A stretch of 64,000 nt of DNA, taken from the NCBI GenBank assembly GCA_041676845.1, contig JBAYRD010000001.1, forward strand, positions 31,174 through 95,173, given 5' to 3'. The DNA comes from Halothiobacillaceae bacterium. Lineage in GTDB: Bacteria > Pseudomonadota > Gammaproteobacteria > Halothiobacillales > Halothiobacillaceae. The notes under the pieces are model-generated. The model saw only the letters and a list, made by a program, of their open reading frames with translations. It did no database searches and was not told the origin of the DNA. Made by a program: the position numbers and the translations under genes. Below, in pieces: positions 22,806-36,377 of this stretch; the stretch's first letter is position 1; each line of letters begins with the position of its first letter.

Positions 22806-25800
22806 GCCTCTTCCTCGGCCACAAGCGCCTTCTGGTGGCTGCCACTGGTAGCCCTGGCCAGCGGCAGGTAGATGGCCAGGGCAATCTCGTCGAAGTCCAT
22901 TCGTGCAGCGATGGCATCAAAATCAGGCCACAGCCGCGTGAGATCCGCGTCGTACTGGGCCGCCTGCTCGAACTCCTTGCGCGCCGCTGCGAATTGGCGT
23001 TGCGAGTCCGCCTGGTTGAGGAGCCAGGCGATTTGGCTACGCGGCTCGGCCGGCAGGGGCTCGCGACTGGCGCGATGCCAGAGCGTGATCAATTTGCTCA
23101 GAATCTCGCGGGCCTGCTCGGGCTTGATCGGCCCCAGGGCGACCGGGCGTTCGGTCAGCGATTCCTTGCGGGCATCCGACTCGCTGATGAGATAGGTGGT
23201 CACTGATCGACCGCTCAGCTGGGCGGCGACATGGGCGGGCCATTCCCTCACCAGCCGGTGCCACCGGAGATTTTTGCCCTTGTGCAGGGCACCGGCCATC
23301 AGTCGGATCCGAACCGCGCCCTCGTCTCCGACGCGAATGTCGTTGATTTCGCCAGTCAGTAGCAGTTCGCCGTCCGAGGCCAGCCGATCGCCCGGGTGAA
23401 ATGGTGGCAGGGACTCAGGGTAGCGCGCCCGGAAGGCGGCCCAGCTGCGTAGCTGCCGGTTGATGGCCTCGCTGTGTGCCCGGCGCAGGGCCTGGTCGAA
23501 TGGCGGTAATGGCAGCTGACCACTGCCGGCAATGCGGTCGAAGGCCGCGTCGACCCAACCGAGAAGGCGTTCCTCGAGTATTTCGGGTGCCAAGGTATCG
23601 ACCGATTCGCGCTGCAGTCGGCTGACCATCCGGTCGAGTAGCTGTCGGCTGAGTTGTGCCTCGCCGAGGGCGTCGAGCGCGAACGGCTCGTCGTCTTCGG
23701 GCGTGGCGATGTCGTATCGAGCGGGCACATCAAGATGCCGGCCGAGATAGACCCGCCAGGGTCTCCTCAACAGCAGAGCGAGATCGTCGATCGACGGCGG
23801 CTGGATTTCGTCGACGCTCAGCGGCTGTCGCCCGGCCGCTGGTTGTTCCTCCGCGCGGTGCACCCGGTGCCATTCCTCGGCATAGCTGAATAGTTCGGGC
23901 CGTTCCTGATCGAAGTACTGTCGGCTGAATGGCTGCAGGGGGTGCTCGGTGGTCAGTATCTCCGATGGCGATTTCCCGTCGTGGCCTCCGGCCAGGGACC
24001 AGCCACGGTCGATATGGTCGCGCAGCTGGTTGACCAGTACCGAAGCCGGACGCTCGTGATTGTCACGGATGCTCCGGCCAACCCAGCTGATCCACAGCCG
24101 GTCGCGGGCGGAGAGCAGCGCCTCGAGAAACAGATAGCGATCGTCCTCGCGCCGCGAACGGTCACCGGGGCGATAGCGGCCCGCCATCAGGTCGAAGTCC
24201 GCAGCCGGTTGACGGCGTGGGTAGGCGCTGTCGTCCATTCCCAGCAGGTAGACCTGACGGAACGGGATGGCGCGCATGGGCATCAGCGTGGCGAAATTGA
24301 TGGCACCGCCCAGAAAACGCTGATTGAGGCGATGCTCATCCAGTCGGTCGAGCCAGGCACTGCGCGCCGTTTCGATACCGATCTGCTGCTCGAAGGCCGC
24401 TGAACGACAGTCGATCAGCCAGCTCGTGGCGGCGTCGAGGATGCGGTCACGCAGCACGAGCGCGGATTCGCGCTCGGCCAGTGGGTTGCCGGAATCTTCA
24501 CCCGGAGGAATGGCTTCGGGATCGAAGAACGCGGTCAGCAAGCTCTCGAATCCGGTTACCCACTCGGTCGGGGTGCGTGTTTTCGACAGATAATCGCGCC
24601 AGCGTTTGAGCGTATCGACCAGGACGTAAAGCGGGCCGACCACCGCAGCACTCATGCCGTCCATGCCAGCGACCGGGACGATGCCCTGCCAGTCCTCGTC
24701 GGCCCCGGCCAGATAGGCGTACAGCAGCCGGTCGAGACCGAACCGCCAGCTGTTCTGTTCAATGCCCGGCGGCAAGCCGAAATCGGGGCGATGCGCACCA
24801 TCCAGCCCCCAACGGATGCCGGCGGTCTCGATCCAGTGACGCAGCAGAGCGACATCGTCTGCGGCGATGCCAAAGCGTGCCCGCAGGGCGTCGACTTCGA
24901 GCAGATCCATGACCTCGCTGGCGGTCAGCCGCGCTTCGGGGAGATGCAGCAGGGTATCCAGCGCCCGCCGCATCGGGTGGGTCTCGCGCTCGGGGCGATC
25001 AGAAATGGCGAACGGCAGATGGCGCGGATCGTCGCGCTCGAGGCGGCCGAACACAGCGCTGACCGCCGGGGCATAGTCGGTCATGTTCGGCACCATTACG
25101 ATCACATCGCGCGGCGTCAGGGTCGGATCGGCATCAAAGGCTGCCAGCAGCTGGTCCTGCAGGATTTCGACTTCACGCAGCGGACTGTGCGCCACGGTAA
25201 AGCGGATGGAAGGATCGGTCAGGTCCAGTTGTCGTTGTTCGGCCACGATCTCGGTCATTGGCTTGAGATCAAGCAGGTCGGCCTGGATCAGCCCGAGCAG
25301 CTGCGAGGACTCGGGTTCGTTGAACAGATCAATATTGAGCGTTTCGCCGCCACGTACACGCTCCGGTGCCTGGTCGAAGGCATCGACCAGTCGAACCAGG
25401 TCCCGGCCTTGCTTCCCCCAAGAGGCCAACAGCGGATGTGCGTGCTGGTGCAGGGCGTGCTCGTCGAGCGAGGCGTCGATTTTCCGCTCCATGATGCGGC
25501 GATAAGCGTCCCGGAACAGATGCCGGTCCTCGACGATGTCGCCCCAGTAATGTCGACAAGGGTTCTGCAGGCAGAAGATCACCTGAGTCCAGCGCGAGAC
25601 CGCCGCCAGTACCTCGAGCACCTGCGGGGACAGGGCAGAGACACCGAAAACCACAATGCGACGTGGCAAATCGGCCGGGCGCTTGCCTGGGTCGTCAGCA
25701 GCCCGTTTGGCCTGTTCGAGGAAGGCCTGGTGGACCAGTGCCCGGCCAGCGTAATTTGTTGGCAGCTGGTCGTAATCGGCTGAAACCGGCGGATGGTCCT

Positions 25801-26410
25801 GCAGATCCGCCAGAATCGCTCGCCATAGCGCAGGCTGCCAGCGTGAGCTGGTTGGTACGACCGCATCCTCGGCCAACAGACCGGGCAGGGCGGCTTCGTC
25901 GTCGGCCCAGCGGGCCAGCCAATCGGCACGGTAGACCTGATACTGGTCGAACTGGTCGGCCAACCGCGCGGCAAGCTGGTAGGCGCGGTGCTCGTCGCCG
26001 TCGATGTAGTGCCGGAGCGGCTCGAACACCGGATCGGCGCTGATCGTCGATGCACTCAACAAGCGGAATAGGCGCCAGGTCAGTCGAGGCTTGTCCAGCG
26101 GCGCCTCGGGTGGCACGGCATCGTGACCCAGCACGGCTCGATAACACTGCCACTGCAGACGGGCCGGCAGCAACAGGTCCATCGCGGTCGCGACCCCCAG
26201 CCCGCCGTCACGCCGCGAGCGGCCCAATGCCAAGCGCAGCCACTGGGCCATACCATTGCTCTGCACCAGAATGCGCTCGTCCTCCAGCGGCGCCAAGGGC
26301 GACCGGTCGAGCCACTGAACCAGCAGATCGCGCAGCCCCTCAAGGCGATTGCCTTGCAGGACGATAAAACCCGGGGTGATCGGGGCGTGGGCAGTCGTGG
26401 AGCGAGTCAA
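22802..26410 (-). CDS. recC: Exodeoxyribonuclease V gamma subunit
   Basis: GNRLE, QFDQYQVYR and TLMPMRAIPF motifs. Confidence 0.96.
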   Translation of the reverse strand: MTRSTTAHAPITPGFIVLQGNRLEGLRDLLVQWLDRSPLAPLEDERILVQSNGMAQWLRLALGRSRRDGGLGVATAMDLLLPARLQWQCYRAVLGHDAVPPEAPLDKPRLTWRLFRLLSASTISADPVFEPLRHYIDGDEHRAYQLAARLADQFDQYQVYRADWLARWADDEAALPGLLAEDAVVPTSSRWQPALWRAILADLQDHPPVSADYDQLPTNYAGRALVHQAFLEQAKRAADDPGKRPADLPRRIVVFGVSALSPQVLEVLAAVSRWTQVIFCLQNPCRHYWGDIVEDRHLFRDAYRRIMERKIDASLDEHALHQHAHPLLASWGKQGRDLVRLVDAFDQAPERVRGGETLNIDLFNEPESSQLLGLIQADLLDLKPMTEIVAEQRQLDLTDPSIRFTVAHSPLREVEILQDQLLAAFDADPTLTPRDVIVMVPNMTDYAPAVSAVFGRLERDDPRHLPFAISDRPERETHPMRRALDTLLHLPEARLTASEVMDLLEVDALRARFGIAADDVALLRHWIETAGIRWGLDGAHRPDFGLPPGIEQNSWRFGLDRLLYAYLAGADEDWQGIVPVAGMDGMSAAVVGPLYVLVDTLKRWRDYLSKTRTPTEWVTGFESLLTAFFDPEAIPPGEDSGNPLAERESALVLRDRILDAATSWLIDCRSAAFEQQIGIETARSAWLDRLDEHRLNQRFLGGAINFATLMPMRAIPFRQVYLLGMDDSAYPRRQPAADFDLMAGRYRPGDRSRREDDRYLFLEALLSARDRLWISWVGRSIRDNHERPASVLVNQLRDHIDRGWSLAGGHDGKSPSEILTTEHPLQPFSRQYFDQERPELFSYAEEWHRVHRAEEQPAAGRQPLSVDEIQPPSIDDLALLLRRPWRVYLGRHLDVPARYDIATPEDDEPFALDALGEAQLSRQLLDRMVSRLQRESVDTLAPEILEERLLGWVDAAFDRIAGSGQLPLPPFDQALRRAHSEAINRQLRSWAAFRARYPESLPPFHPGDRLASDGELLLTGEINDIRVGDEGAVRIRLMAGALHKGKNLRWHRLVREWPAHVAAQLSGRSVTTYLISESDARKESLTERPVALGPIKPEQAREILSKLITLWHRASREPLPAEPRSQIAWLLNQADSQRQFAAARKEFEQAAQYDADLTRLWPDFDAIAARMDFDEIALAIYLPLARATSGSHQKALVAEEEA

Positions 26411-26581
26411 GTCGTCGTGCCTTCCCTATTGGCCGTGAGAACAGTAGTAGATGGTAGTGAATAGCCGTGACTGGCCGAAGTGTATGGGATCCCCGCAGTG
26501 CTTGGTACCGCGCCGACACTGATGTCCTCTCGCCGCCCAGCATATCGCTGGGAAGCGGAGAGGGCAGGGCATCAGAAAAAC

Positions 26582-26616
26582 CCAGTCAATTTGCCGGGGC
26601 CAGTCAATCTGCCGGG
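26582..26616 (+). repeat. 18-bp tandem duplication
   Basis: CCAGTCAATTTGCCGGGG followed directly by CCAGTCAATCTGCCGGG. Confidence 0.75.
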
Positions 26617-27111
26617 CTTGACAGTTATAGAAATCCAGGACCAACCCAGGATATTAGTATTCGTTTAAACAGGATTGTCCGGGTGGCATTGGATTGAAAT
26701 GAAACAGTCGTAGTTTATGCACTTTCGGACAATGATTTGATTCACTGTGGGGCTTTCCATATAAATATGGTCAACCTGGCAGCAGGCCTCGAAGATAGCC
26801 TGGTGTCGGGGTTAAAGCGCAAATGGAATATGTTCAGCAAAGCGACCTATAACAATCGTTGAAGATGAGAGACTGTTTTGTGCTCCGAACGCAGCCTGCG
26901 GGGCCAGGCGACTGGATTGCATGCGACAAAAGGCTCCGAGGCCCTTGCCGCGGAACGGCTTACAGGATCAGACACATGGATTTTTATCGACCATTAGCCA
27001 AGGCAATTGGCCTTGTGTTGGTCAAGTCAACTATTTTCATGCATGGCGTTGGCAACGGATGGCCTAGTAAACGATCAAAATAGAGTGCCTGAAGCCTTAG
27101 AGGAGTATCCC

Positions 27112-27591
27112 ATGATCAAACGTGTTTTGCTGCTTGTCTGTCTGCTGCCTGCGCTGGCCATGACCATGGCCATGGCCAACGAGAATCAGCCATGGGGCTC
27201 GGCTGAACTGACCGAAAAGATATATGCCCCTGCCAAGGTTGTTTATGACGTCAGTGCTGCCGATGCGGTTGAGTTGAATAGTATTATTGGTCGGGTTAGT
27301 CACCTCAATAACGAGTATGCCGGTGATGTTTTCGATGCCCATACCGTGGTGGTATTGCACGGTGATGAGATCCCGTTATTCACGGCCGAAAAATACGTGG
27401 AAAACAAGGAGTTGATGGAGCGGGCACAATCGTTGACTTTGGCGGGGAATATTGAGTTCCGCATGTGCGCTGCTGCCGCCGAACTGCATGGAGTCAAGCC
27501 TGAGGATGTGCATGGTTTTGTAAATATGGTACCGATGGCTGATGCCGAAATTATCGAATTGCAGCATCAGGGCTACGCCTATATGCGGTAA
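27112..27591 (+). CDS. Secreted DsrE/DsrF-like protein
   Basis: GAGGAG RBS, signal peptide, VVVLHGDE and EFRMC motifs. Confidence 0.8.
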   Translation: MIKRVLLLVCLLPALAMTMAMANENQPWGSAELTEKIYAPAKVVYDVSAADAVELNSIIGRVSHLNNEYAGDVFDAHTVVVLHGDEIPLFTAEKYVENKELMERAQSLTLAGNIEFRMCAAAAELHGVKPEDVHGFVNMVPMADAEIIELQHQGYAYMR

Positions 27592-27682
27592 CGGGTTCTG
27601 GCGAGCAGGGGAGCGACCAGAGGTATCGACCAGCACCACCCGCGCCAAGCCGCGCGATGCCGACGAAATGTGAGTCAGTGAG

Positions 27683-29473
27683 TCAAATGCTCGACGATTT
27701 TTTATTCGGCGTGGTCGTGCCGGCAAGCCGCTGGCGCTGCCAACGTTCCGCCACGGCGCTGACTTGCGTCAAGTCGCGGCAGTAGGTCAATGCCCCGGCC
27801 GTCTTGCGGATACCGGCACGACGAAGCTTGACGATCATCTCCGTCGGCAGTCCGACCAGAATGAGCGCCACCCCCCTGCGATGCATTTCGTTGATCATTG
27901 TCTGCAGTGCCACAATCGCCGTGCCGTCGATGCTTAGCACATCGTTCATGTCGATGACGATGGTGCGAATCTTGGGGTCGACCATCTGCAGTGAAGTCAG
28001 CGCCTTTTCGGCCACGCCAAAGAACAACGGGCCGTTGATTTTGTAGAGGGCCACCTCGTCTGGAAAGCTGATGTCCGGTAACTGAGTGTCACTCTCAACC
28101 CACTCAGTGTGGGTCAGCCGGGCCATGCGGCGAATGAACAGCGCAGCGGCGAGCCCGATGCCGACGGCCACGGCCAATACCATGTCGAAAATCACGGTCA
28201 AGCCAAAGCAGGTCACCAGTATCGCCACGTCACTTAAAGGCGCTGAGCGCAGCGTATGCATGAAATGACGGGCCTCACTCATGTTCCAGGCGATGATGAA
28301 CAGCAGCGCCGCCAACGACGCCATTGGCACCAGCCCCAGCAGACCCGCCAACGCAATTATGGTCAGCAGGATTACCCCGGAGTGCACCACGGCGGCAATG
28401 GGAGAGCGGGCGCCGCTGCGAATATTGGTCGCCGTGCGGGCAATGGCAGCGGTGGCCGTGATGCCGCCAAACAGCGGCGCGACGATATTGCCCAGCCCCT
28501 GGCCGATCAGTTCAGCATTGGGGTCATGCTTGGTCTTCGTCAACCCGTCAGCAATAACCGCGCACAACAAGGACTCGATCGCCGCCAGCATGGCGATCGC
28601 AAAGGCCGGGCCGATCAGCGCACGAATCAGATCGAAGTTCAGCACCAGCGGTTCGCCATCCGCTCCCGGCAACAGCCAGGGCGCCATGAATGTGGGTGCA
28701 ATCGGTGGAATACCGCTGCCGGTCTGGCCACCGACCTCCCAGGTAAAGCGCGAAGAAATCGTTTCTATGACAACGTCAGCGCCGCCACCCAGCCACCGAT
28801 TGGCGACGTAGGCCGCGATGGCGCCCACAACCAGCCCGATCATGGGCGCCGGAATGGGTGCTCGCAGGCGCGGCCACAGCAGCATGACAGCCAGCGTGAA
28901 TACCCCGATGCCAAGCTCAAGGGGCGCGATCGTGGGCAGCGAGGCGAAAATTCGCCCGACGTTATCGATGAAATGCTCACCCAACTGCCCAACTTCCAGC
29001 CCCAGAAAGTCAGGGATCTGCAGCGTGGCAATGACCACCGCAATCCCTGCAGTAAAGCCGAGCACCACCGGATAGGGTACGAATTCGATCAACCGGCCCA
29101 TGCGCGTGAGCCCCAGGATCACCAGTATGACGCCGGCCATCATCGAGGCGATCAGCAAGCCGCCCAGCCCGTACTGCTGAACGATGGGAAACAGGATGAC
29201 CACGAAAGCGGCTGTTGGGCCGGAGACATTGAAGCGCGCCCCGCCGGTCAGGGCGATGATGGCACCGGCCACAATCGCCGTGTACAGCCCGTGCTGAGGC
29301 GGTACCCCTGTGGCGATCGCCAGCGCCATGGAAAGCGGCACCGCCACGACCCCGATGGTCAGCCCCGCCATAATATCCTTGCGCAAGTCCGAGAAACCGT
29401 AGCCCTCGTGAAAGGCGTCGCGCAGGCCAGTGGCCATCCGAGGCAGGTTTAGTGAAAAACGGTTGCGTGACAT
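27683..29473 (-). CDS. dauA: SulP-family transporter with STAS domain (DauA/YchM-like)
   Basis: PLSMALAIATGVPPQHGLY, SGPTAAF, ELIGQGLGN and STAS GPLFFG motifs; substrate not determinable. Confidence 0.85.
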   Translation of the reverse strand: MSRNRFSLNLPRMATGLRDAFHEGYGFSDLRKDIMAGLTIGVVAVPLSMALAIATGVPPQHGLYTAIVAGAIIALTGGARFNVSGPTAAFVVILFPIVQQYGLGGLLIASMMAGVILVILGLTRMGRLIEFVPYPVVLGFTAGIAVVIATLQIPDFLGLEVGQLGEHFIDNVGRIFASLPTIAPLELGIGVFTLAVMLLWPRLRAPIPAPMIGLVVGAIAAYVANRWLGGGADVVIETISSRFTWEVGGQTGSGIPPIAPTFMAPWLLPGADGEPLVLNFDLIRALIGPAFAIAMLAAIESLLCAVIADGLTKTKHDPNAELIGQGLGNIVAPLFGGITATAAIARTATNIRSGARSPIAAVVHSGVILLTIIALAGLLGLVPMASLAALLFIIAWNMSEARHFMHTLRSAPLSDVAILVTCFGLTVIFDMVLAVAVGIGLAAALFIRRMARLTHTEWVESDTQLPDISFPDEVALYKINGPLFFGVAEKALTSLQMVDPKIRTIVIDMNDVLSIDGTAIVALQTMINEMHRRGVALILVGLPTEMIVKLRRAGIRKTAGALTYCRDLTQVSAVAERWQRQRLAGTTTPNKKSSSI

Positions 29474-30232
29474 AGACAACTCTCTGAACGTGCCATCCGC
29501 GCCATGGAGGAGGCCTGCAGCAGTACCCCCTGATATGGAATAGCAGCAAAACATGTCAATAACATTGCCATGTTATTTTAATTTCATGCCATGAAGGTGC
29601 TTGGCGGAAGTTCTCATGAGAGAAAAGACAGCTTGCCTGTCCTTATCTGGGCGGCTAGCACAAGAAATGTGCGGCCGAACAGCCATGCGCCCCACAGGAG
29701 GTTGATGCCTTCACAGCCAGGCTCGCCAGCTGATCCGCCACGTAGCGCAGGGTTTTGATCGAAACTTCCATTATAACATCCCAGCACTTTTTATCGATAT
29801 CGAAAATCATGATAAATAAGAAAGGCATCTGTAGATGACAGATATCTGTCCATTTGGCTCGCAGTAGTAGCTTAACGGCAAGGAATTGATATCACTGTCC
29901 CATATTCTAATTTAATCCATCGGAATATTAACGACTCTAGCGGCCAATTACAGGATGATGAATTACACTTCCAGCGAAAGGAAAGAAGAAATATCCGTTA
30001 TTAATATAATAAAAATAATTATGGGATTGATGGAGTTTTCAGGGGCATTCCAGACCTAAATCAACTTTAATTATCCTGATCTTAAATGCCGCCAGGGCGG
30101 TAGTTTGGCATCTGTTCCAAGGTGGTTTCAGGGAAATGTTTTACTGCAAGACCTGACCCCGTGCAGGGTATGGTCCGCAAGCGGATTGTGTGGGCCTGGA
30201 AAATTTGGGTTTGGGAAAACAATAATGAGCAT

Positions 30233-30265
30233 ATAAAAAACCGCCGGATTTATGCCGGCGGCTTT
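30233..30265 (-). terminator. Intrinsic terminator after the IPTL-CTERM gene
   Basis: CCGCCGG/CCGGCGG stem with a T6 tract on the minus strand. Confidence 0.8.
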
Positions 30266-30370
30266 CTGTTTTGTTTTACGAGCGTGGCGGCAGGGCCGCC
30301 AGACTCGTTTTGGCTTTCCAACCACCCATCAGTGGCGGAAGAAGCGGAGGCTCAGGCCACCAAGAGCCAG
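30233..30370 (-). repeat. Copy 1 of the ~140-bp module: IPTL-CTERM 3' end, hairpin and terminator
   Basis: Aligns with 31534-31674; 78 bp (30256-30333 vs 31559-31636) are identical. Confidence 0.95.
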
Positions 30371-31072
30371 CATCAGGAGGCTGAACAGAGCGATACCCCA
30401 GGGCTGCATGGTTGGAATTGAAACAGCCGCACCATCTTCGGGCTGGCTAAGAGGCATAACCGCACGCACCATCAGTGCACGATATTCGGCGGAAGCGCTA
30501 AGGCTACCGATGGTCTCCCATGATCCGGCGTCGTCCTCAGTCGTGAACCACAGATAGCCATTGTTCGACGGCGTGGCAGAGCTTTCATCGGCGGCGATGA
30601 AGACGCCTTCGCCTGTGGATGACGGGTCCCACTGCAGGCCGATGTATACCGGGCCGGCGATCTCCAAACCCAGTGAACTGATGTCGTATGTTTCGAAGCT
30701 GGCTGTCATGGGCGTGGTGCTGGTGACCGGATGGCCCGTTGCTGGCATGCGGCCAAGTTCGGTGCCTGGACTGCCGCCCGTGCCATCGCTGTCCCAAACG
30801 ACGATCTCAAAGTCGAACTCGGTGACGCCACTAGTAGTCATGAACGAGTAACAAACCGAGGTGATCGTCGCCGGATAGGCTGCGGCCTCGAACGGTTCGG
30901 CGAAGCGACCGTCGGTGACGACATTGGGGTTCCAGCCATAGCCGTTCTCGGCTTCACCGTCATCGTGGATGACGATGTCGGCAGTACCCGGTTGGCAGCT
31001 ATCAGCGGCCACTGCCAGGCCCGTGCCTGTGGTAGCCATCATGGCCAGCAATATGGTTATCAATTTTTTCAT
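30329..31072 (-). CDS. Secreted protein with IPTL-CTERM sorting domain
   Basis: Signal peptide; C-terminal SIPTMQPWG, TM helix and basic tail LRFFRH. Confidence 0.85.
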   Translation of the reverse strand: MKKLITILLAMMATTGTGLAVAADSCQPGTADIVIHDDGEAENGYGWNPNVVTDGRFAEPFEAAAYPATITSVCYSFMTTSGVTEFDFEIVVWDSDGTGGSPGTELGRMPATGHPVTSTTPMTASFETYDISSLGLEIAGPVYIGLQWDPSSTGEGVFIAADESSATPSNNGYLWFTTEDDAGSWETIGSLSASAEYRALMVRAVMPLSQPEDGAAVSIPTMQPWGIALFSLLMLALGGLSLRFFRH

Positions 31073-31533
31073 GTGAACTTTTTAAACTCCAATCCAGTGG
31101 ATGGTGGCAGGTGAAATCGATGGATCTCACCTGCTTCGTTCTTCCAGACAGACAGGGCAACGTTTACGGGAAACAGCGAGCACTGTCATATTCCTGCGTC
31201 GGCAAATAGGATGATGTGTATGCCGGTGTCACGGACAGCTGTCCCGTTCTGACCATTAGCCGCCATATCCAAGCACGGCGCAAAAAAAGACGGTCGCCGA
31301 CTGCAGGGATGGCTCATTTATAGCCCGGATCAGGATGGCGCGCAAACAACGCCACTTGCCGTCGTTGTGTGGTAGCGGCTTTCTGTCCGATGTCGCGTGG
31401 GGGAGCGATCTGTTTCAGAACAGCTCCGATTTTTCCCTTTGTCAGGCTTGCAGAGCTTGCGGCTGATGGCTCGGTACGGCAGTTCGTGCCCTGTGATCGC
31501 CAGGCGGATTACCGGTAAAGAGGTGATATGCGC

Positions 31534-31674
31534 ATAAAAAAAGCCGCCGAATTCATGTCGGCGGCTTTCTGTTTTGTTTTACGAGCGTGGCGGCAGGGCC
31601 GCCAGACTCGTTTTGGCTTTCCAACCACCCATCAGTTGCGTGAAGAAGCGGAGGCTCAGGCCAGCAAGAGCCAG
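31534..31674 (-). repeat. Copy 2 of the module; frameshifted IPTL-CTERM 3' remnant downstream of sufE
   Basis: Reads LALAGLSLRFF, then a 1-nt insertion removes the in-frame TGA; both hairpins are retained. Confidence 0.92.
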
Positions 31675-31732
31675 TACGCACTCGTGCCTGCTTGGTGAAT
31701 CCAGGGCGCTCACTTTGGCAGACTGATTCCCG

Positions 31733-32161
31733 TCAGGCGGCGCGTTCGGCGGCCAGTCCGCGGATTTTCTCGATCATGTTGGACAGGCCGGTGGCGCGAT
31801 TGGCCGACAGATGTGACGACAATCCCAATTCGTCCATGAAGCCGCTGTCGGTTGCGAGGATTTCTTCGGCGGAACGGTCGGAGTAGATGCGAAAGAGCAG
31901 GGCGATCAGGCCGTTGACGATCATGGCGTCACTGGTTCCGATCAGTTGTAGGCGGTCGCCATCCCATTCGTAGTCGAACCACACTTGGGACTGACAACCG
32001 TGGAACATGTGCGCCTCGTCCTGCTTTTCGGGCGGGAAGGTGGGCATCTGCCTGCCCATGTCCATGATGTACTGATAGCGCTCGGTCCAGTCGCCAAGAA
32101 AGGCGAACTCGTCCTTCAGGGCACTGATTTCGGCAGCGATGCTGGGTGCCTTGTCGGCCAT
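31733..32161 (-). CDS. sufE: Fe-S assembly sulfur acceptor SufE
   Basis: GCQSQVW, SDAMIVNGL and LS.NR..GL motifs. Confidence 0.95.
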   Translation of the reverse strand: MADKAPSIAAEISALKDEFAFLGDWTERYQYIMDMGRQMPTFPPEKQDEAHMFHGCQSQVWFDYEWDGDRLQLIGTSDAMIVNGLIALLFRIYSDRSAEEILATDSGFMDELGLSSHLSANRATGLSNMIEKIRGLAAERAA

Positions 32162-32196
32162 GGGTGTCCTCCGGGGTCGGGCGGGTGTGCGCCGGC

Positions 32197-32649
32197 TCAG
32201 GCCTGCTCGCGCACGTTGAAGCTTTCGCCGCAGCCGCAGCTGTCCTCGACGTTGGGGTTGTTGACCTTCAGCATGCGGGTCAGTCCATCAACGACATAGT
32301 CGAGTGTGGACCCCTGCAGTGCCTTGAAGCTTTCCTGGTCGGAGATTATGGCGATGCCTTCGCCACAATCGAACCAGAGGTCGTTGTCGTCAACGGTGCG
32401 GGCGACGTCCATGACGTAGGCGAATCCCGTGCAGCCGGATTTCTTGATGCCAAGCCGCAGGCCGAGGGCTGTCTTGTCGCCGCCGAGGGTGTTGTGCAGG
32501 TATTGGCGCGCGGCGTCGGTGAGTGACAGCTGCTGCTCGGCCGGGAGTGCGGCGGCGCGGGCACGGGCGGCCTCGATGTGGGTCGGATCGACCGCTGTGG
32601 TCGCGGTCGTCTGGTTGGTCGATTGGGCACTGTGGACTTCGGCAGTCAT
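32197..32649 (-). CDS. sufA: A-type Fe-S carrier (SufA/HesB)
   Basis: SGCTGFAY and NPN....CGCGESF motifs. Confidence 0.9.
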   Translation of the reverse strand: MTAEVHSAQSTNQTTATTAVDPTHIEAARARAAALPAEQQLSLTDAARQYLHNTLGGDKTALGLRLGIKKSGCTGFAYVMDVARTVDDNDLWFDCGEGIAIISDQESFKALQGSTLDYVVDGLTRMLKVNNPNVEDSCGCGESFNVREQA

Positions 32650-32673
32650 GGGCCTTCCTCCAGCTTGATTGGG

Positions 32674-33036
32674 TCAGCCCGCCTCGCGGGGGGTGCTGGC
32701 CACGTAAATAATGTCGTTCTCGACTCGGATATCGTAGCAGTCGATCGGCTCGTAGGCCGGAGCGGACAGGGCTTCGCCGTCACGCAGACAGAAATCGGCA
32801 CCATGCCAGGGGCAGGTGATGATGTCGCCATTGAGTGGTCCATCGGAAATGGGCAGTTCCTGATGACTGCACTCGTCGACCACGGCGAGAATCACCCCAT
32901 CGGCATTCACGACGAGAATATCGATGTCGGGGCCTTCAACCACCCGGCGTTCACCGGGGGCCAGTTCGCGTTGTTCGCAGACGCGGATCCACTGGTCGTC
33001 CAGCTCATCCAGGAATGAATTCGCGGTGTCAGTCAT
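32674..33036 (-). CDS. Rieske-type [2Fe-2S] ferredoxin
   Basis: CSH...CPWHGA Rieske motifs. Confidence 0.92.
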   Translation of the reverse strand: MTDTANSFLDELDDQWIRVCEQRELAPGERRVVEGPDIDILVVNADGVILAVVDECSHQELPISDGPLNGDIITCPWHGADFCLRDGEALSAPAYEPIDCYDIRVENDIIYVASTPREAG

Positions 33037-33267
33037 TGTAGCTGTCTCGTCTGTTCGCAGAAGATAGAGTTGTTGTATGGGCGTCTTGAAAACTCATCAC
33101 CAGCCGCCCGGGCGTCATTTCAATATGCAAGATTCAGCAGCCAGCGCCACAGCATGTCAGATCAGACAGGTAGGGGCAGCCAGTGACAGGCTGCTCCCAG
33201 CCACTGGTTTCTGAAAGCTGAGAGTCCCGACAGCCGCGGTTGCTTTTTGATGCGGGCTTGAGGCGAC

Positions 33268-33813
33268 TCAGAACATGCCGGTGGCGAGCCGGGCCTCATC
33301 CGACATCATCTCGCGGTTCCAGGGTGGATCGAAGACCAGTTCGACTGCCGCTTCCTCGACAGTGGGGATCTGCATGATCTGCTGGTGGGCATCCGAGGCG
33401 ATCACGCCGCCCATGCCACAACCGGCCGCAGTCAGGGTCATGTCCACTTCGACTCGTCGCCCGGCGACTGGCAGGGTCTCGACCTTCACCTTGTAGATCA
33501 GGCCCAGGTCGACGATGTTGATCGGGATTTCCGGGTCGTAGACACCACGCAACTGCTCCCAGACCATCGCCTCGACTTCTTCGTCGGAGGCGTTGTCAGG
33601 CAGCTTGGGCTGCGGGGGCGGCTCCTTGCCCAGGGCGTCGGCATCCTTGCCCTCGATCCGAAGCATGTGGCCGCGCGCCCTGACGGTGAAACTGCCGCCC
33701 AAGGCCTGCATTATCTCGACCGGTGTGCCCTTCGAGGCGAGCACTCGCTGCCCGGAGGGCACCATGGTGCAGACTACGTCACGGTTCAGTTGGATACGCT
33801 CCTTCGGTTCCAT
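33268..33813 (-). CDS. sufT: Fe-S assembly protein SufT (long form, DUF59)
   Basis: VYDPEIPINIVDLGLIY, MTLTAAGCGMG and FDPPW motifs with an N-terminal extension. Confidence 0.92.
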   Translation of the reverse strand: MEPKERIQLNRDVVCTMVPSGQRVLASKGTPVEIMQALGGSFTVRARGHMLRIEGKDADALGKEPPPQPKLPDNASDEEVEAMVWEQLRGVYDPEIPINIVDLGLIYKVKVETLPVAGRRVEVDMTLTAAGCGMGGVIASDAHQQIMQIPTVEEAAVELVFDPPWNREMMSDEARLATGMF

Positions 33814-33834
33814 GATTCGTTCTCCGGTGGTTGG

Positions 33835-35079
33835 TTAGACGAGCATGTCGCGCACGCGGGCGACCGCGGCGACGAACTGGTCGATCTCGCCGATTGTGTT
33901 GTAGAACGCCGCCGAGGCGCGGGCGGTGCCCGCCGGTGCCTCGAAACGACGCATCAGGGGCATCGCGCAATGATGCCCGGTGCGTACGGCAATCCCCATG
34001 GAATCCAGCAGGGTGCCGATGTCGTGCGGGTGCGTCCCGTCGATCAGGAACGAGGCCACTGGCACCTTGTGCGCGGCCTGACCCACGATCTGCAGGCCGG
34101 GGATCTCGCTCAAGCCTTCCGTCATGCGCGCGAGCAGGGCGGCTTCGTGGTGTTCGATCGCCAGCCAGTCGAGCCCGTCCAACCACTCAAGGGCTGCGCC
34201 GAAGCCGATTGTGCCCTCGATATTGGGGGTGCCGGCCTCGAACTTGGATGGCGGCGCTGCGAAACGCACGCCGTCGAAACGCACGTCTTCGATCATGTCG
34301 CCGCCGCCCATGAAGGGCGGTAGACGATCGAGCCAGTCGCCACGCGCGTACAGGGCGCCAATGCCGCTCGGCCCGAACAGCTTGTGGCTCGAGCAGGTAT
34401 AGAAGTCGCAGCCGAGCGCCTGGACGTCAACCGGTCCGTGCGGCGGCCCCTGAGCGCCGTCGACCAGTACCGGGATCTCCTGTGCCTGGGCGATCTTGCT
34501 GATCTGGGCGACCGGGTTGACCGTGCCAAGCGCGTTGGAGACGTGGTTGATCGCGATCAATCGAGTCCGGTCGGTGATCAGATCGGGCAGGGCGTCGATC
34601 TCAAGATCACCTTGGTCGTTGACCGGAATGATGCGAATGACCAGCCCCTTGCGCTCCACCAGCATCAGCCAAGGCACGATGTTGGCATGGTGTTCGAGTT
34701 CGCTGAGGATTACCTCATCACCAGCCTGCCAGTCGACTGTCAGCGAGTGGGCCAGCAGGTTGATCGCTTCGGTGACGCCACGGACGAACACGATCTCGCG
34801 ATCGTGCTCGGCATTGAGCGTTCGGGCCACCTGTGTGCGGGCTGCCTCGAAGCGTTCGCTCGCCCGCGCCGAGAGCGTGTGCACACCCCGGTGGATGTTG
34901 GCATTGTCACGCTCGTAGAACTCGCGGATGGTATCGATCACCACCTGCGGTTTCTGCGTGGTGGCAGCATTGTCGAGGTAGACCAGCGGCCTGCCGTGGA
35001 CTTCCTGGTCGAGCACCGGGAACTGTGCCCGAATGGCCTCAACCGAGAACGGCTGGATACGTCTATCGTCGTTCATCAC
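33835..35079 (-). CDS. sufS: Cysteine desulfurase SufS
   Basis: YLDNAATTQKP, SSHKLFGP and RTGHHCA motifs. Confidence 0.96.
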   Translation of the reverse strand: MMNDDRRIQPFSVEAIRAQFPVLDQEVHGRPLVYLDNAATTQKPQVVIDTIREFYERDNANIHRGVHTLSARASERFEAARTQVARTLNAEHDREIVFVRGVTEAINLLAHSLTVDWQAGDEVILSELEHHANIVPWLMLVERKGLVIRIIPVNDQGDLEIDALPDLITDRTRLIAINHVSNALGTVNPVAQISKIAQAQEIPVLVDGAQGPPHGPVDVQALGCDFYTCSSHKLFGPSGIGALYARGDWLDRLPPFMGGGDMIEDVRFDGVRFAAPPSKFEAGTPNIEGTIGFGAALEWLDGLDWLAIEHHEAALLARMTEGLSEIPGLQIVGQAAHKVPVASFLIDGTHPHDIGTLLDSMGIAVRTGHHCAMPLMRRFEAPAGTARASAAFYNTIGEIDQFVAAVARVRDMLV

Positions 35080-36377
35080 GCGTTCCGTTCACTGCGAGCG
35101 ATCTGCTCGACCAGGCGCTGCTCGACGTGCTCGGTGAGCCAGTCACGCAATTCGACCAGCGGGATCTCGTCGATCACCTCCTGGGCGAAACCGGCGATCA
35201 GCAGGTTGCGGGCAGCGGCCTCCGGCACGCCGCGTGACTGCAGGTAGTACAGCGCTTCGTCGTCAAGCCGACCGATGGTCGCACCATGTGAGCACTTGAC
35301 GTCGTCGGCGTAGATTTCGAGCTCGGGTTTAGCATCGATCTCGGCGTCATCCGACAGGATCAGGTTGTTGCTGGATTGATACGCCTCGATCCGCTGCGCG
35401 TCCTTTTCGATCAGAATGCGGCCCTTGAATATGCCACGACCAGAGTCATCGACGATGGTGCGGTAATGCTCGTTGCTGGTGGTGTCCGCCGCGGCATGCG
35501 TGATCCGCGTGTGGGTATCCAGCACCTGCTTGCCACGCGGCATCATCAGGCCGAACAGATCGGTGTGCGCCCCGGAGCCGCCGACATGGATGTCATATTC
35601 GCGACGGATCATCTGGCCGCCCAGTTGCACATTGTAATTGTAGTAGCGCGCATCACGGTCGAGTTCGGCGAAGCTGCGCTCGGTAGCCAGGCGTGCATCT
35701 CCGTCCAGTCCCAGGGCGATGTGCGTCAATGCGGCATTGGCGGCAATCGACGCGACAATCACGCTGTTGCGCCAGATCGGCTGATCACCGACGGTCTCGA
35801 TGTGTTCGATCAAGGTGGCAGCGGCGCTCTGGCCCAGGCGCACCAGTATGCGCGGGTGGCTCATGACCGATTCGGTCGCCCCGTCCAGCCATTCGATCAC
35901 GATCGGGCGCTCAATGACGGCGCTAGCCGCGACATCGATCACCACGCCTTCACGCGCCATGGCCGTGTTCAAGGTGACCAGGGCATCGTTAGGATTGTCG
36001 ACGCTCGGGGCCGGTTTGGGCGAGAAGGCCGCCACACGACTTGCCTCATCGGCATCCGCAAGGGCGGTAATCGTCACGTCTGTCGGGAGGTCGTCCGGCA
36101 GACCCTGGAACACGCCATCGACAAAACGCAGACGGACGGGGTTCTCCAGCGGCAGGCGGGTGCTGGGTTCGATATCCGCACCGACAGCGCCGGTTGAGGC
36201 GTTGAAGCGCCCGCGCTGGATGGCGCGCAGGTTGGTCCAGCGCCATTCCTCATCACGCGGACCCGGCAGGCCGAGGGACTCGACCTGACTGCGGGCCGCC
36301 CGGGCAACCTCAGCCGGAGCCACCGTCTGCTCGGGCAGGGCAGCGCTCAGCCACTCAGGAAGTTCAACTCGCTTCAT
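35076..36377 (-). CDS. sufD: Fe-S assembly protein SufD
   Basis: EEWRWTNL and KPELEIYADDVKCSHGAT motifs. Confidence 0.95.
   Translation of the reverse strand: MKRVELPEWLSAALPEQTVAPAEVARAARSQVESLGLPGPRDEEWRWTNLRAIQRGRFNASTGAVGADIEPSTRLPLENPVRLRFVDGVFQGLPDDLPTDVTITALADADEASRVAAFSPKPAPSVDNPNDALVTLNTAMAREGVVIDVAASAVIERPIVIEWLDGATESVMSHPRILVRLGQSAAATLIEHIETVGDQPIWRNSVIVASIAANAALTHIALGLDGDARLATERSFAELDRDARYYNYNVQLGGQMIRREYDIHVGGSGAHTDLFGLMMPRGKQVLDTHTRITHAAADTTSNEHYRTIVDDSGRGIFKGRILIEKDAQRIEAYQSSNNLILSDDAEIDAKPELEIYADDVKCSHGATIGRLDDEALYYLQSRGVPEAAARNLLIAGFAQEVIDEIPLVELRDWLTEHVEQRLVEQIARSERNA

Follow-up and report, generated by a model that had tools for sequence, protein, structure and literature searches.

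A repeat-flanked IPTL-CTERM gene at a variable Guyparkeria locus and its probable loss by recombination between the repeats

The gene studied here encodes a protein with an IPTL-CTERM tail and lies between sufE and dauA in a 64,000-nucleotide stretch of DNA (called the window below) from a bacterium of the family Halothiobacillaceae (GenBank assembly GCA_041676845.1, contig JBAYRD010000001.1, positions 31,174 to 95,173). SufE homologues place the source genome (2.6 Mb, 99.5% complete) in the genus Guyparkeria of this family, and the SufE of the window is 92% identical to that of Guyparkeria hydrothermalis. The 3' end of the IPTL-CTERM gene, together with a hairpin and a putative terminator, occurs a second time just downstream of sufE as an orphan module. 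We consider it likely that this is an accessory gene, flanked by repeats at a hypervariable Guyparkeria site, that is lost by recombination between the repeats, with no dedicated exchange machine. Four haplotypes of the sufE-dauA interval were found within the species complex: A (the window), A-null (with a single module), B and C. On the minus strand the locus of the window runs from sufE through a 58-bp spacer, the orphan module, a 455-bp spacer, the IPTL-CTERM gene with its own module and an AT-rich block to dauA, as listed here.

31733 to 32161, minus strand: sufE, last gene of the suf operon and a conserved flank, with NCBIfam SufE/CsdE matches; collinearity of all haplotypes stops at about 31729.
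31675 to 31732, minus strand: spacer of 58 bp from the sufE stop to the orphan module, common to haplotypes A and B and missing in C (alignment).
31528 to 31674, minus strand: orphan module, made of a frameshifted remnant of the last ~12 codons, hairpin 1 (31581-31611) and a putative intrinsic terminator (31540-31568).
31559 to 31636, no strand assigned: 78-bp core, orphan copy, identical to 30256-30333; proposed conversion tract and crossover zone of the deletion.
31073 to 31527, minus strand: non-coding spacer of 455 bp that precedes the IPTL-CTERM gene and has 36-75% identity to haplotype B.
30329 to 31072, minus strand: IPTL-CTERM gene (247 aa), with a signal-peptide-like N-terminus, a predicted beta-sandwich passenger and a tail consisting of IPTMQPW, a hydrophobic helix and RFFRH.
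30225 to 30370, minus strand: gene-attached module, with the last 13 codons and the stop, hairpin 1 (30278-30308) and a putative intrinsic terminator (30237-30265).
30256 to 30333, no strand assigned: 78-bp core, gene-attached copy, identical to 31559-31636.
29555 to 30224, no strand assigned: AT-rich non-coding block of 0.67 kb (43.7% GC vs 61.3% for the window), variable between A and B and kept in the deletion variant.
27683 to 29473, minus strand: dauA, a SulP/STAS transporter gene (NF008660, 750 bits) and the other flank; similarity to haplotype C resumes at 29437.

The two modules form a direct repeat in the same orientation (146 and 147 bp by repeat search and MAFFT alignment) with a spacing of 1303 bp, or 1304 bp past a 1-bp indel. 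They differ at 9 substitutions and this one indel over about 147 columns, and their longest unbroken identity is the 78-bp core. Chance can be excluded as the origin of the pair because its E value is 6e-59 in the 2.6-Mb genome, where the next-best match is no better than E = 0.1. The orphan begins 58 bp past the sufE stop; one extra base shifts its reading frame, no gene body is attached to it, and its homology to the gene ends within the codons of the transmembrane helix. These observations agree with a preliminary description of the locus, made by a model from the sequence, which had noted two copies about 1303 bp apart sharing 78 identical bp (with boundaries of 138 and 141 bp, a trivial difference). 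Alignment and folding confirmed its account of each copy as the last 13 codons of the IPTL-CTERM gene followed by a hairpin and a terminator, and the alignment bore out its view of the copy after sufE as a frameshifted tail.

An exact-sequence look-up of the window SufE retrieved three contigs of the A-null form, L065 (SRR26497570), L066 (SRR9699891) and L068 (SRR26497569), all from Logan k=31 assemblies and from closely related strains (98-100% identical). L065 and L066 read from sufE through a single module and the AT-rich block into dauA, and L068 reads from sufE through the core and ends four bases beyond it, at the first diagnostic base of the gene type (CCGGCA). In all three, the diagnostic bases of the single module are of the orphan type 5' of the core (CTTGCTGG, and TTCACGCAACTGA with its extra A) and of the gene type on its 3' side, where L065 and L066 show the full set (CCGGCATAAATCCGGCGGTTTTTTATATGCTCATTATTG...). 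The module is thus a hybrid, exactly as a crossover inside the 78-bp core with deletion of 1303 bp would predict. When the null contigs were compared with the joined flanks of the window, the sufE side proved identical (0 differences). On the dauA side, L065 and L066 have about 1.5% single-nucleotide polymorphisms (SNPs) in common and, because these are shared, represent one distinct lineage from different studies. The protein collection contained no other full-length IPTL member at 90% identity or more, and no fragment of 67-212 aa of the IPTL protein was found elsewhere in it. In the sample with a strain identical to the window (SRR6484323, two copies), the contigs do break exactly at the core, L067 stopping at 31607 and L058 having a length of 1285 bp, which corresponds to 1303-78+60. 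At 1285 bp, a loop node exceeds what such assemblers clip as a tip or bulge. We regard the null haplotype as very probably real. From the distribution of the modules, deletion would be more parsimonious than insertion, since A and B, though deeply diverged, both have two copies and the null form falls within A. The loss of the gene through its repeats, as the preliminary description had envisaged, is thus supported by a hybrid single-copy deletion in near-identical strains and by the putative conversion tract of 78 bp.

Comparison with haplotype B gives the repeats a relative age. The orphans of A and B have the same junction and the same 58 bp upstream, and because this junction is common to both, one founding duplication predates the A/B split. 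Orthologous module copies are 76-83% identical between A and B. The gene copy and the orphan of haplotype B (contig L053) are 69% identical, with a longest identical run of 13 bp, compared with 93% overall and 100% over the core in the window. Over the core, identity is 100% between the paralogues of the window, 58-85% between the window and L053 and 42-80% between the paralogues of L053. The identical stretch in A comprises the segment from the stop to the hairpin, hairpin 1, the linker and the first terminator bases; the terminator part, at 85% between the two copies of A, is as diverged as in the orthologous comparisons. An identical run of at least 78 bases has a probability of about 0.004 given 10 differences in 147 columns, and of 3e-4 to 3e-6 at a divergence of 10-15%. 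The simplest reading of this pattern would be that gene conversion has affected 78 bp or more in haplotype A, because the paralogues of A are closer to each other than the orthologues only over the core, while the flanks keep the orthologous signal. As to its origin, the orphan could be what is left of a tandem paralogue that once lay upstream, or it could stem from a partial tandem duplication of the gene itself. An ancestor with a tandem pair is plausible because a tandem IPTL-CTERM pair exists elsewhere in the same genome (contig C16, described below).

The sequence of events that we propose is as follows. In the common ancestor of A and B, a founding event, by way of a truncated tandem paralogue or a partial tandem duplication, would have left an orphan 3' end (about 12 codons, the hairpin and the terminator) directly after sufE and 1.2-1.3 kb upstream of an intact IPTL-CTERM gene. 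The orphan terminator would then have been retained, probably since it ended the suf operon, with nothing to prevent the decay of the coding remnant and of hairpin 1. In haplotype A, a non-reciprocal homologous recombination (gene conversion) may have overwritten at least 78 bp and so created a perfect direct repeat. A sister lineage would have lost the 1303-bp unit of orphan terminator, spacer and gene body, looped out by a crossover or by replication slippage inside this tract. One hybrid module would thereby be joined to the dauA side, with the surface protein gone in one step and sufE keeping a terminator. Separately from these events, the whole sufE-dauA interval would be replaced between strains by homologous recombination in the conserved flanks. 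Of this account, the sequences directly show the repeats and their restriction to this locus, the orthologous orphan of haplotype B, the excess of paralogous over orthologous identity in the core alone, the covariation of the terminator, the hybrid contigs with one module and the unrelated haplotype C; the direction of change, gene conversion as the homogenising process, the function of the terminators and the nature of the founding event are inferred.

Every copy of the module retains its terminator hairpin. On the gene strand, the stem-loops at 30237-30265 and 31540-31568 are followed by a U tract (tail UUUUUUAU), and a consensus scan finds the same stems on the plus strand, which makes them potentially bidirectional. 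All six variants fold stably, at a predicted -18 to -23.5 kcal/mol. The loop-closing pair (30247 G/A with 30255 C/T) is G:C in one copy of the window and A:T in the other. The preliminary description had pointed to this compensatory change, which is real; the second haplotype repeats it, so that in A and B alike the gene copy has G:C and the orphan A:U. A covariation analysis among 4-6 module variants, as that description had proposed, yielded two covarying terminator pairs, the second of which takes the forms GC, GU and UA. Such features fit intrinsic terminators that function, one copy serving the IPTL gene and the other sufE; the orphan terminator probably acts after sufE and ends the suf operon.

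Hairpin 1 (ACGAGCGTGGCGGCAGGGCCGCCAGACTCGT, at 30278-30308 and again at 31581-31611) behaves differently from the terminator. It folds at -22.7 kcal/mol in haplotype A, with a z-score of about -5.6 for the whole module, but at only -9.7 and -8.3 kcal/mol in the two copies of haplotype B, where the changes in the inner stem are mostly uncompensated (one C:G to U:A change is compensatory). The outer ACGAG/CUCGU stem and CCAAAACGAGTCT are unchanged in every copy. A Rfam scan of the module gave no match near threshold (best 21.5 bits vs a gathering score of 55). The constancy of hairpin 1 in the window is not functional evidence because the hairpin is degraded in haplotype B; it would be a by-product of conversion. 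The earlier idea of an invariant inner hairpin acting as a functional RNA is accordingly not supported, since the invariance holds only between the two copies of the window (-22.7 vs -8 to -10 kcal/mol in haplotype B).

Haplotype B is represented by L053, with which L070 and L071 agree. Its genes from sufBD to recC are arranged as in the window, and an orphan directly follows sufE. Identity to the window is 92-100% in the flanks and 36-81% from the sufE stop to the dauA start; the divergent segment consists of the orphan, spacer, gene, module and AT-rich block (the last 56-67% identical between A and B and missing in C), and its breakpoints lie in sufE and dauA, not in the modules. By these values and by the synonymous divergence of the IPTL gene (given below), A and B are deep alleles. 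Over window positions 24497-36200 the identity to L053 is a mosaic, with 100% over 2.7 kb of recC and upstream sequence, 87-100% in the suf genes and 93-99% in dauA, which suggests frequent homologous recombination in this Guyparkeria population. Haplotype C (L074, and also L075-L077) is marked by a SufE of 92% identity (P0012; four loci, one of them in a metagenome-assembled genome at NCBI) and has an unrelated 0.88-kb non-coding spacer between sufE and dauA (L074:6430-7311), with flanks that are about 94-96% identical. Module, IPTL gene and AT-rich block are all missing from it, and its similarity to the window, lost at 31729, returns at 29437 within the first dauA codons.

Two small differences between A and B were also seen. 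Haplotype B has an extra, perfect-looking palindrome of about 43 bp just after its module (L053:6316-6358, within the block L053:6290-7000). In the window, some 80-100 bp just downstream of the orphan terminator (31429-31527) are without a counterpart in haplotype B, which appears as a gap of 82 columns.

The module was looked for well beyond this locus. Only these two copies are present in the 99.5% complete source genome, and there is no copy in 40 relatives. The exact 41-nt hairpin core and the degenerate pattern CCAAAACGAGTCT-N15-21-CTCGTAA gave chance matches only among GTDB species representatives and JGI metagenome contigs; the five pattern matches in these collections show no flanking similarity and are thus attributed to chance. 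The genome encodes 8 IPTL-CTERM tails above the TIGR04174 cut-off, and none of the other 7 genes carries the module. The view of the module as the shared constant 3' end of many IPTL-CTERM genes is not upheld by these counts, with one gene in eight bearing it and none in the 40 relatives, the GTDB representatives or the JGI metagenomes. A dispersed repeat family, similar to repetitive extragenic palindromes (REP) or miniature inverted-repeat transposable elements (MITE), was likewise rejected, as there are two copies and one gene only. The preliminary description had named as marks of a one-off duplication a module confined to this locus, an invariant single gene in relatives, and neither covariation nor a deletion product. 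The module does occur only here, which by the first of these marks already goes far to refute the exchange system that the description proposed; the deletion product and the covariation were found.

The arrangement of a gene followed by a bulged inverted repeat brings integron cassettes and their attC sites to mind, and the repeat is also found upstream of the gene. This reading was rejected: there is no IntI and no array, core sites (R''/R') are lacking, the gene has 455 bp of upstream DNA of its own and a Rho-independent type of terminator, and the repeat has two copies. A search for the integron integrase TIGR02249 gave at best 75 bits against a cut-off of 265 bits, with matches that are Xer-like and on other contigs. 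By inspection, the hairpin flanks CCAAAACGAG and CTCGTAAAAC contain no inverse pair of the attC core sites RYYYAAC/GTTRRRY.

Several points weigh against loss by repeat recombination as we present it. The null form is known solely from k=31 contigs, whose k-mers cannot span the 78-bp core, and a mis-join at low coverage could in principle be its source. Gene conversion is read from the pattern of identities alone; its direction is not readable, as the core of the window is a mosaic with respect to the two L053 copies. Only two of the two-copy haplotypes are independent, and the orthology signal of the terminators amounts to one base pair and the shared junction, which are few informative sites. 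Furthermore, a promoter is presumed for the IPTL-CTERM gene, and none was confidently found in the 455-bp spacer (31073-31527).

The assembly argument leads to the alternative of a static, one-off duplication, in which the repeats would be fossil, with no recombination going on between them, and k=31 mis-joins through the 78-bp repeat would account for the single-module contigs. The null contigs are all from Logan and are short (1.4-3.0 kb), suggesting low coverage, and a 31-mer cannot bridge the core. However, a 1285-bp loop is neither a tip nor a bulge, so that a two-copy genome should break at the core, as happens in SRR6484323. The deletion path is found instead in all three samples of the SNP-distinct lineage, including two runs with unrelated accession series, and no full-length or partial IPTL protein from the null samples is in the collection. 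The 78-bp identity itself requires recombination between the copies, and we judge a purely static duplication unlikely. The same contigs could also be read in the opposite direction: the single-module form would be the older one in A, and the 1.3-kb unit would have been integrated, or reintegrated, by a single crossover of a circular or transformed copy. An integration of the Campbell type would indeed give two identical cores with the observed diagnostic bases, and on the sufE side the null strains match the window exactly. This order of events is very unlikely in our estimate, given that the two-copy state and the orphan junction are shared with the deeply diverged haplotype B and are thus ancestral. 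Moreover, the orphan-type terminator and spacer of the window diverge from B about as much as the neighbouring sequence does, and a 1.3-kb circle would be without any replication or transfer function.

The preliminary description had gone further than loss, and proposed a recombinase-free exchange system in which many IPTL-CTERM genes are gained, lost and swapped at sufE through the constant 3' module. Loss through the module is indeed seen, two divergent alleles occur in near-identical backgrounds, and the C16 tandem pair has tails that are 94% identical over 96 bp vs about 73% elsewhere in its 3' half. Against exchange stand the absence of the module from any other IPTL-CTERM gene and from the relatives and collections searched, the occupation of the site by one gene family only, and the A/B breakpoints, which are in sufE and dauA and not at the modules. 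In haplotype B the modules share at most 13 identical bases, too few for an exchange handle. Such a system is highly improbable on this evidence, and the replacement boundaries at sufE and dauA, together with one gene family in two alleles, speak directly against a cassette exchange via the module. What stands of the earlier proposals is narrower: the sufE-dauA interval does vary across strains, with four haplotypes, but with one gene family and two alleles only, and an origin from a tandem IPTL-CTERM pair is plausible in the light of C16, whereas gain and swapping of several genes through the module is unsupported. It could also be argued that purifying selection on a functional element at the RNA or DNA level, comprising hairpin 1 and its flanks, and not conversion, accounts for the 78-bp identity, in view of the stability of hairpin 1 in the window and the constancy of the outer ACGAG/CUCGU stem and CCAAAACGAGTCT in all copies. 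Yet both copies of haplotype B have lost most of the inner stem through uncompensated changes, the unstructured linker and the stop-to-hairpin stretch are 15-58% different in B while 100% identical in the window, and Rfam offers no match. By our own estimate, chance would give a 13-nt invariant run about once per module among three effectively independent sequences at about 80% identity, and the conservation of the outer stem and CCAAAACGAGTCT does not exceed chance expectation. We find selection on such an element the least credible explanation of the identity.

Loss by repeat recombination, the reading that we prefer, involves textbook mechanisms (gene conversion, direct-repeat deletion and flank-mediated allele replacement) and no new one. 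Deletion between direct repeats by homologous recombination or replication slippage loops out the intervening segment, as in the segregation of tandem duplications. The case described here is alike in that a 1.2-kb segment lies between repeats of the same orientation that are perfectly identical over 78 bp, and in that a natural variant with one hybrid repeat and without the segment exists; it is unlike in that the repeat is the deleted gene's own 3' end and terminator, which leaves the neighbouring operon with a terminator after the loss. Gene conversion and concerted evolution are familiar from short bacterial paralogues, e.g., the tuf genes and the rRNA operons. As in these, the paralogues are identical over a bounded tract and the orthologues and flanks are diverged, but the tract here is very short (at least 78 bp), mostly non-coding and present in one haplotype only. 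Minimal mobile elements, or replaceable islands between conserved flanking genes, have been described in Neisseria. The Guyparkeria locus resembles them in that conserved flanks (sufE and dauA, or recC and sufE genus-wide) enclose unrelated contents with no recombinase or transposase, and differs in that the exchange is read from sequence alone and four haplotypes are sampled. The likeness to PEP-CTERM/exosortase-type signals (IPTL-CTERM, TIGR04174), with a motif, a hydrophobic helix and a basic tail at the extreme C-terminus, concerns the cargo only, the sorting signal having no demonstrated part in DNA rearrangement.

The value of the case is in the completeness of its documentation. This small natural case would show every stage of repeat-mediated gene loss in public data, from an old duplication through a recent conversion tract, which created the perfect 78-bp repeat, to a deletion fixed in a sister lineage; haplotype B, with diverged repeats and no recombination between them, serves as an internal control. 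The sufE-dauA interval (recC-sufE genus-wide) marks a hot spot of accessory-gene turnover in Guyparkeria whose cargo is a fast-evolving surface protein. The locus also carries a caution, namely that identity between paralogous copies should not be taken as evidence for a functional RNA. A bolder extension would make the homogenised module a selected, recombinase-free contingency switch: conversion would maintain the perfect repeat, cassette-free cells would arise continually, transformation through the sufE and dauA flanks would restore or swap alleles, and tandem IPTL-CTERM genes in general (e.g., the C16 pair) would use their conserved 3' ends likewise. We hold this to be quite unlikely; if true, cassette-free cells could, for example, escape phage or grazers that recognise the protein.

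The IPTL protein of the window scores 24.4 bits with TIGR04174 (cut-off 20.5) and 17.3 bits with Pfam PF18203, under the cut-off of 20.8. Its C-terminal tail (IPTMQPWGIALFSLLMLALGGLSLRFFRH) has the motif, the hydrophobic helix and the basic cluster, and by eye the N-terminus resembles a signal peptide. An AF2 model (pLDDT 65) is all-beta, with weak matches to lectin-like and carbohydrate-binding-module (CBM) beta-sandwiches; as all matches of the fold search had E above 1e-3, no function was assignable from it. The family is very small: 5.8 billion proteins yielded 6 homologues, of which one is a fusion with a DUF7933/DUF11 domain and the nearest, at 77-78% identity, is the one on L053. Between alleles A and B the IPTL gene has a synonymous divergence (dS) of 0.51 and a nonsynonymous divergence (dN) of 0.14, giving a dN/dS of 0.28. 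The flanking genes have dS values of 0.04-0.24 and dN/dS of 0.00-0.46, only sufA (0.46) exceeding the dN/dS of IPTL. Fast evolution of this kind fits an exposed surface protein. A tandem array around a distant homologue (P0005, L054) was considered and rejected, the neighbours being unrelated (a membrane protein gene and a fumarase-like gene) and showing no repeated 3' end. Literature searches for "IPTL-CTERM" returned nothing relevant to this locus, and searches for the run accessions of the contigs found no papers.

The tandem IPTL-CTERM pair in the source genome (C16:27850-30200, minus strand) encodes paralogues of 407 and 339 aa with 56% identity. The high identity of their 3' tails relative to the remaining 3' half could be due to concerted evolution or to strong constraint on the tail.

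At the genus level, the window and a Guyparkeria hydrothermalis-like genome (G010) are collinear on both sides of the recC-sufE interval, that is, for recC and everything upstream and from sufE onward. In the window this interval (26431-31733) spans 5.3 kb and contains a DsrE-like gene, dauA, the AT-rich block and the IPTL unit. In G010 (C1:568094-576725, corresponding to L072/L045) it spans 8.6 kb of unrelated genes, among them those for a repeat protein, a C39-like peptidase, a porin-like outer-membrane protein and a LysR regulator, none of which has a homologue in the genome of the window. No homologue of the IPTL protein or of DauA was found in 19 other Guyparkeria species representatives, and in these a convergent LysR-type gene comes next after sufE. 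The recC-sufE interval is a variable replacement locus at the level of the genus, and the repeat-flanked gene lies at its edge.

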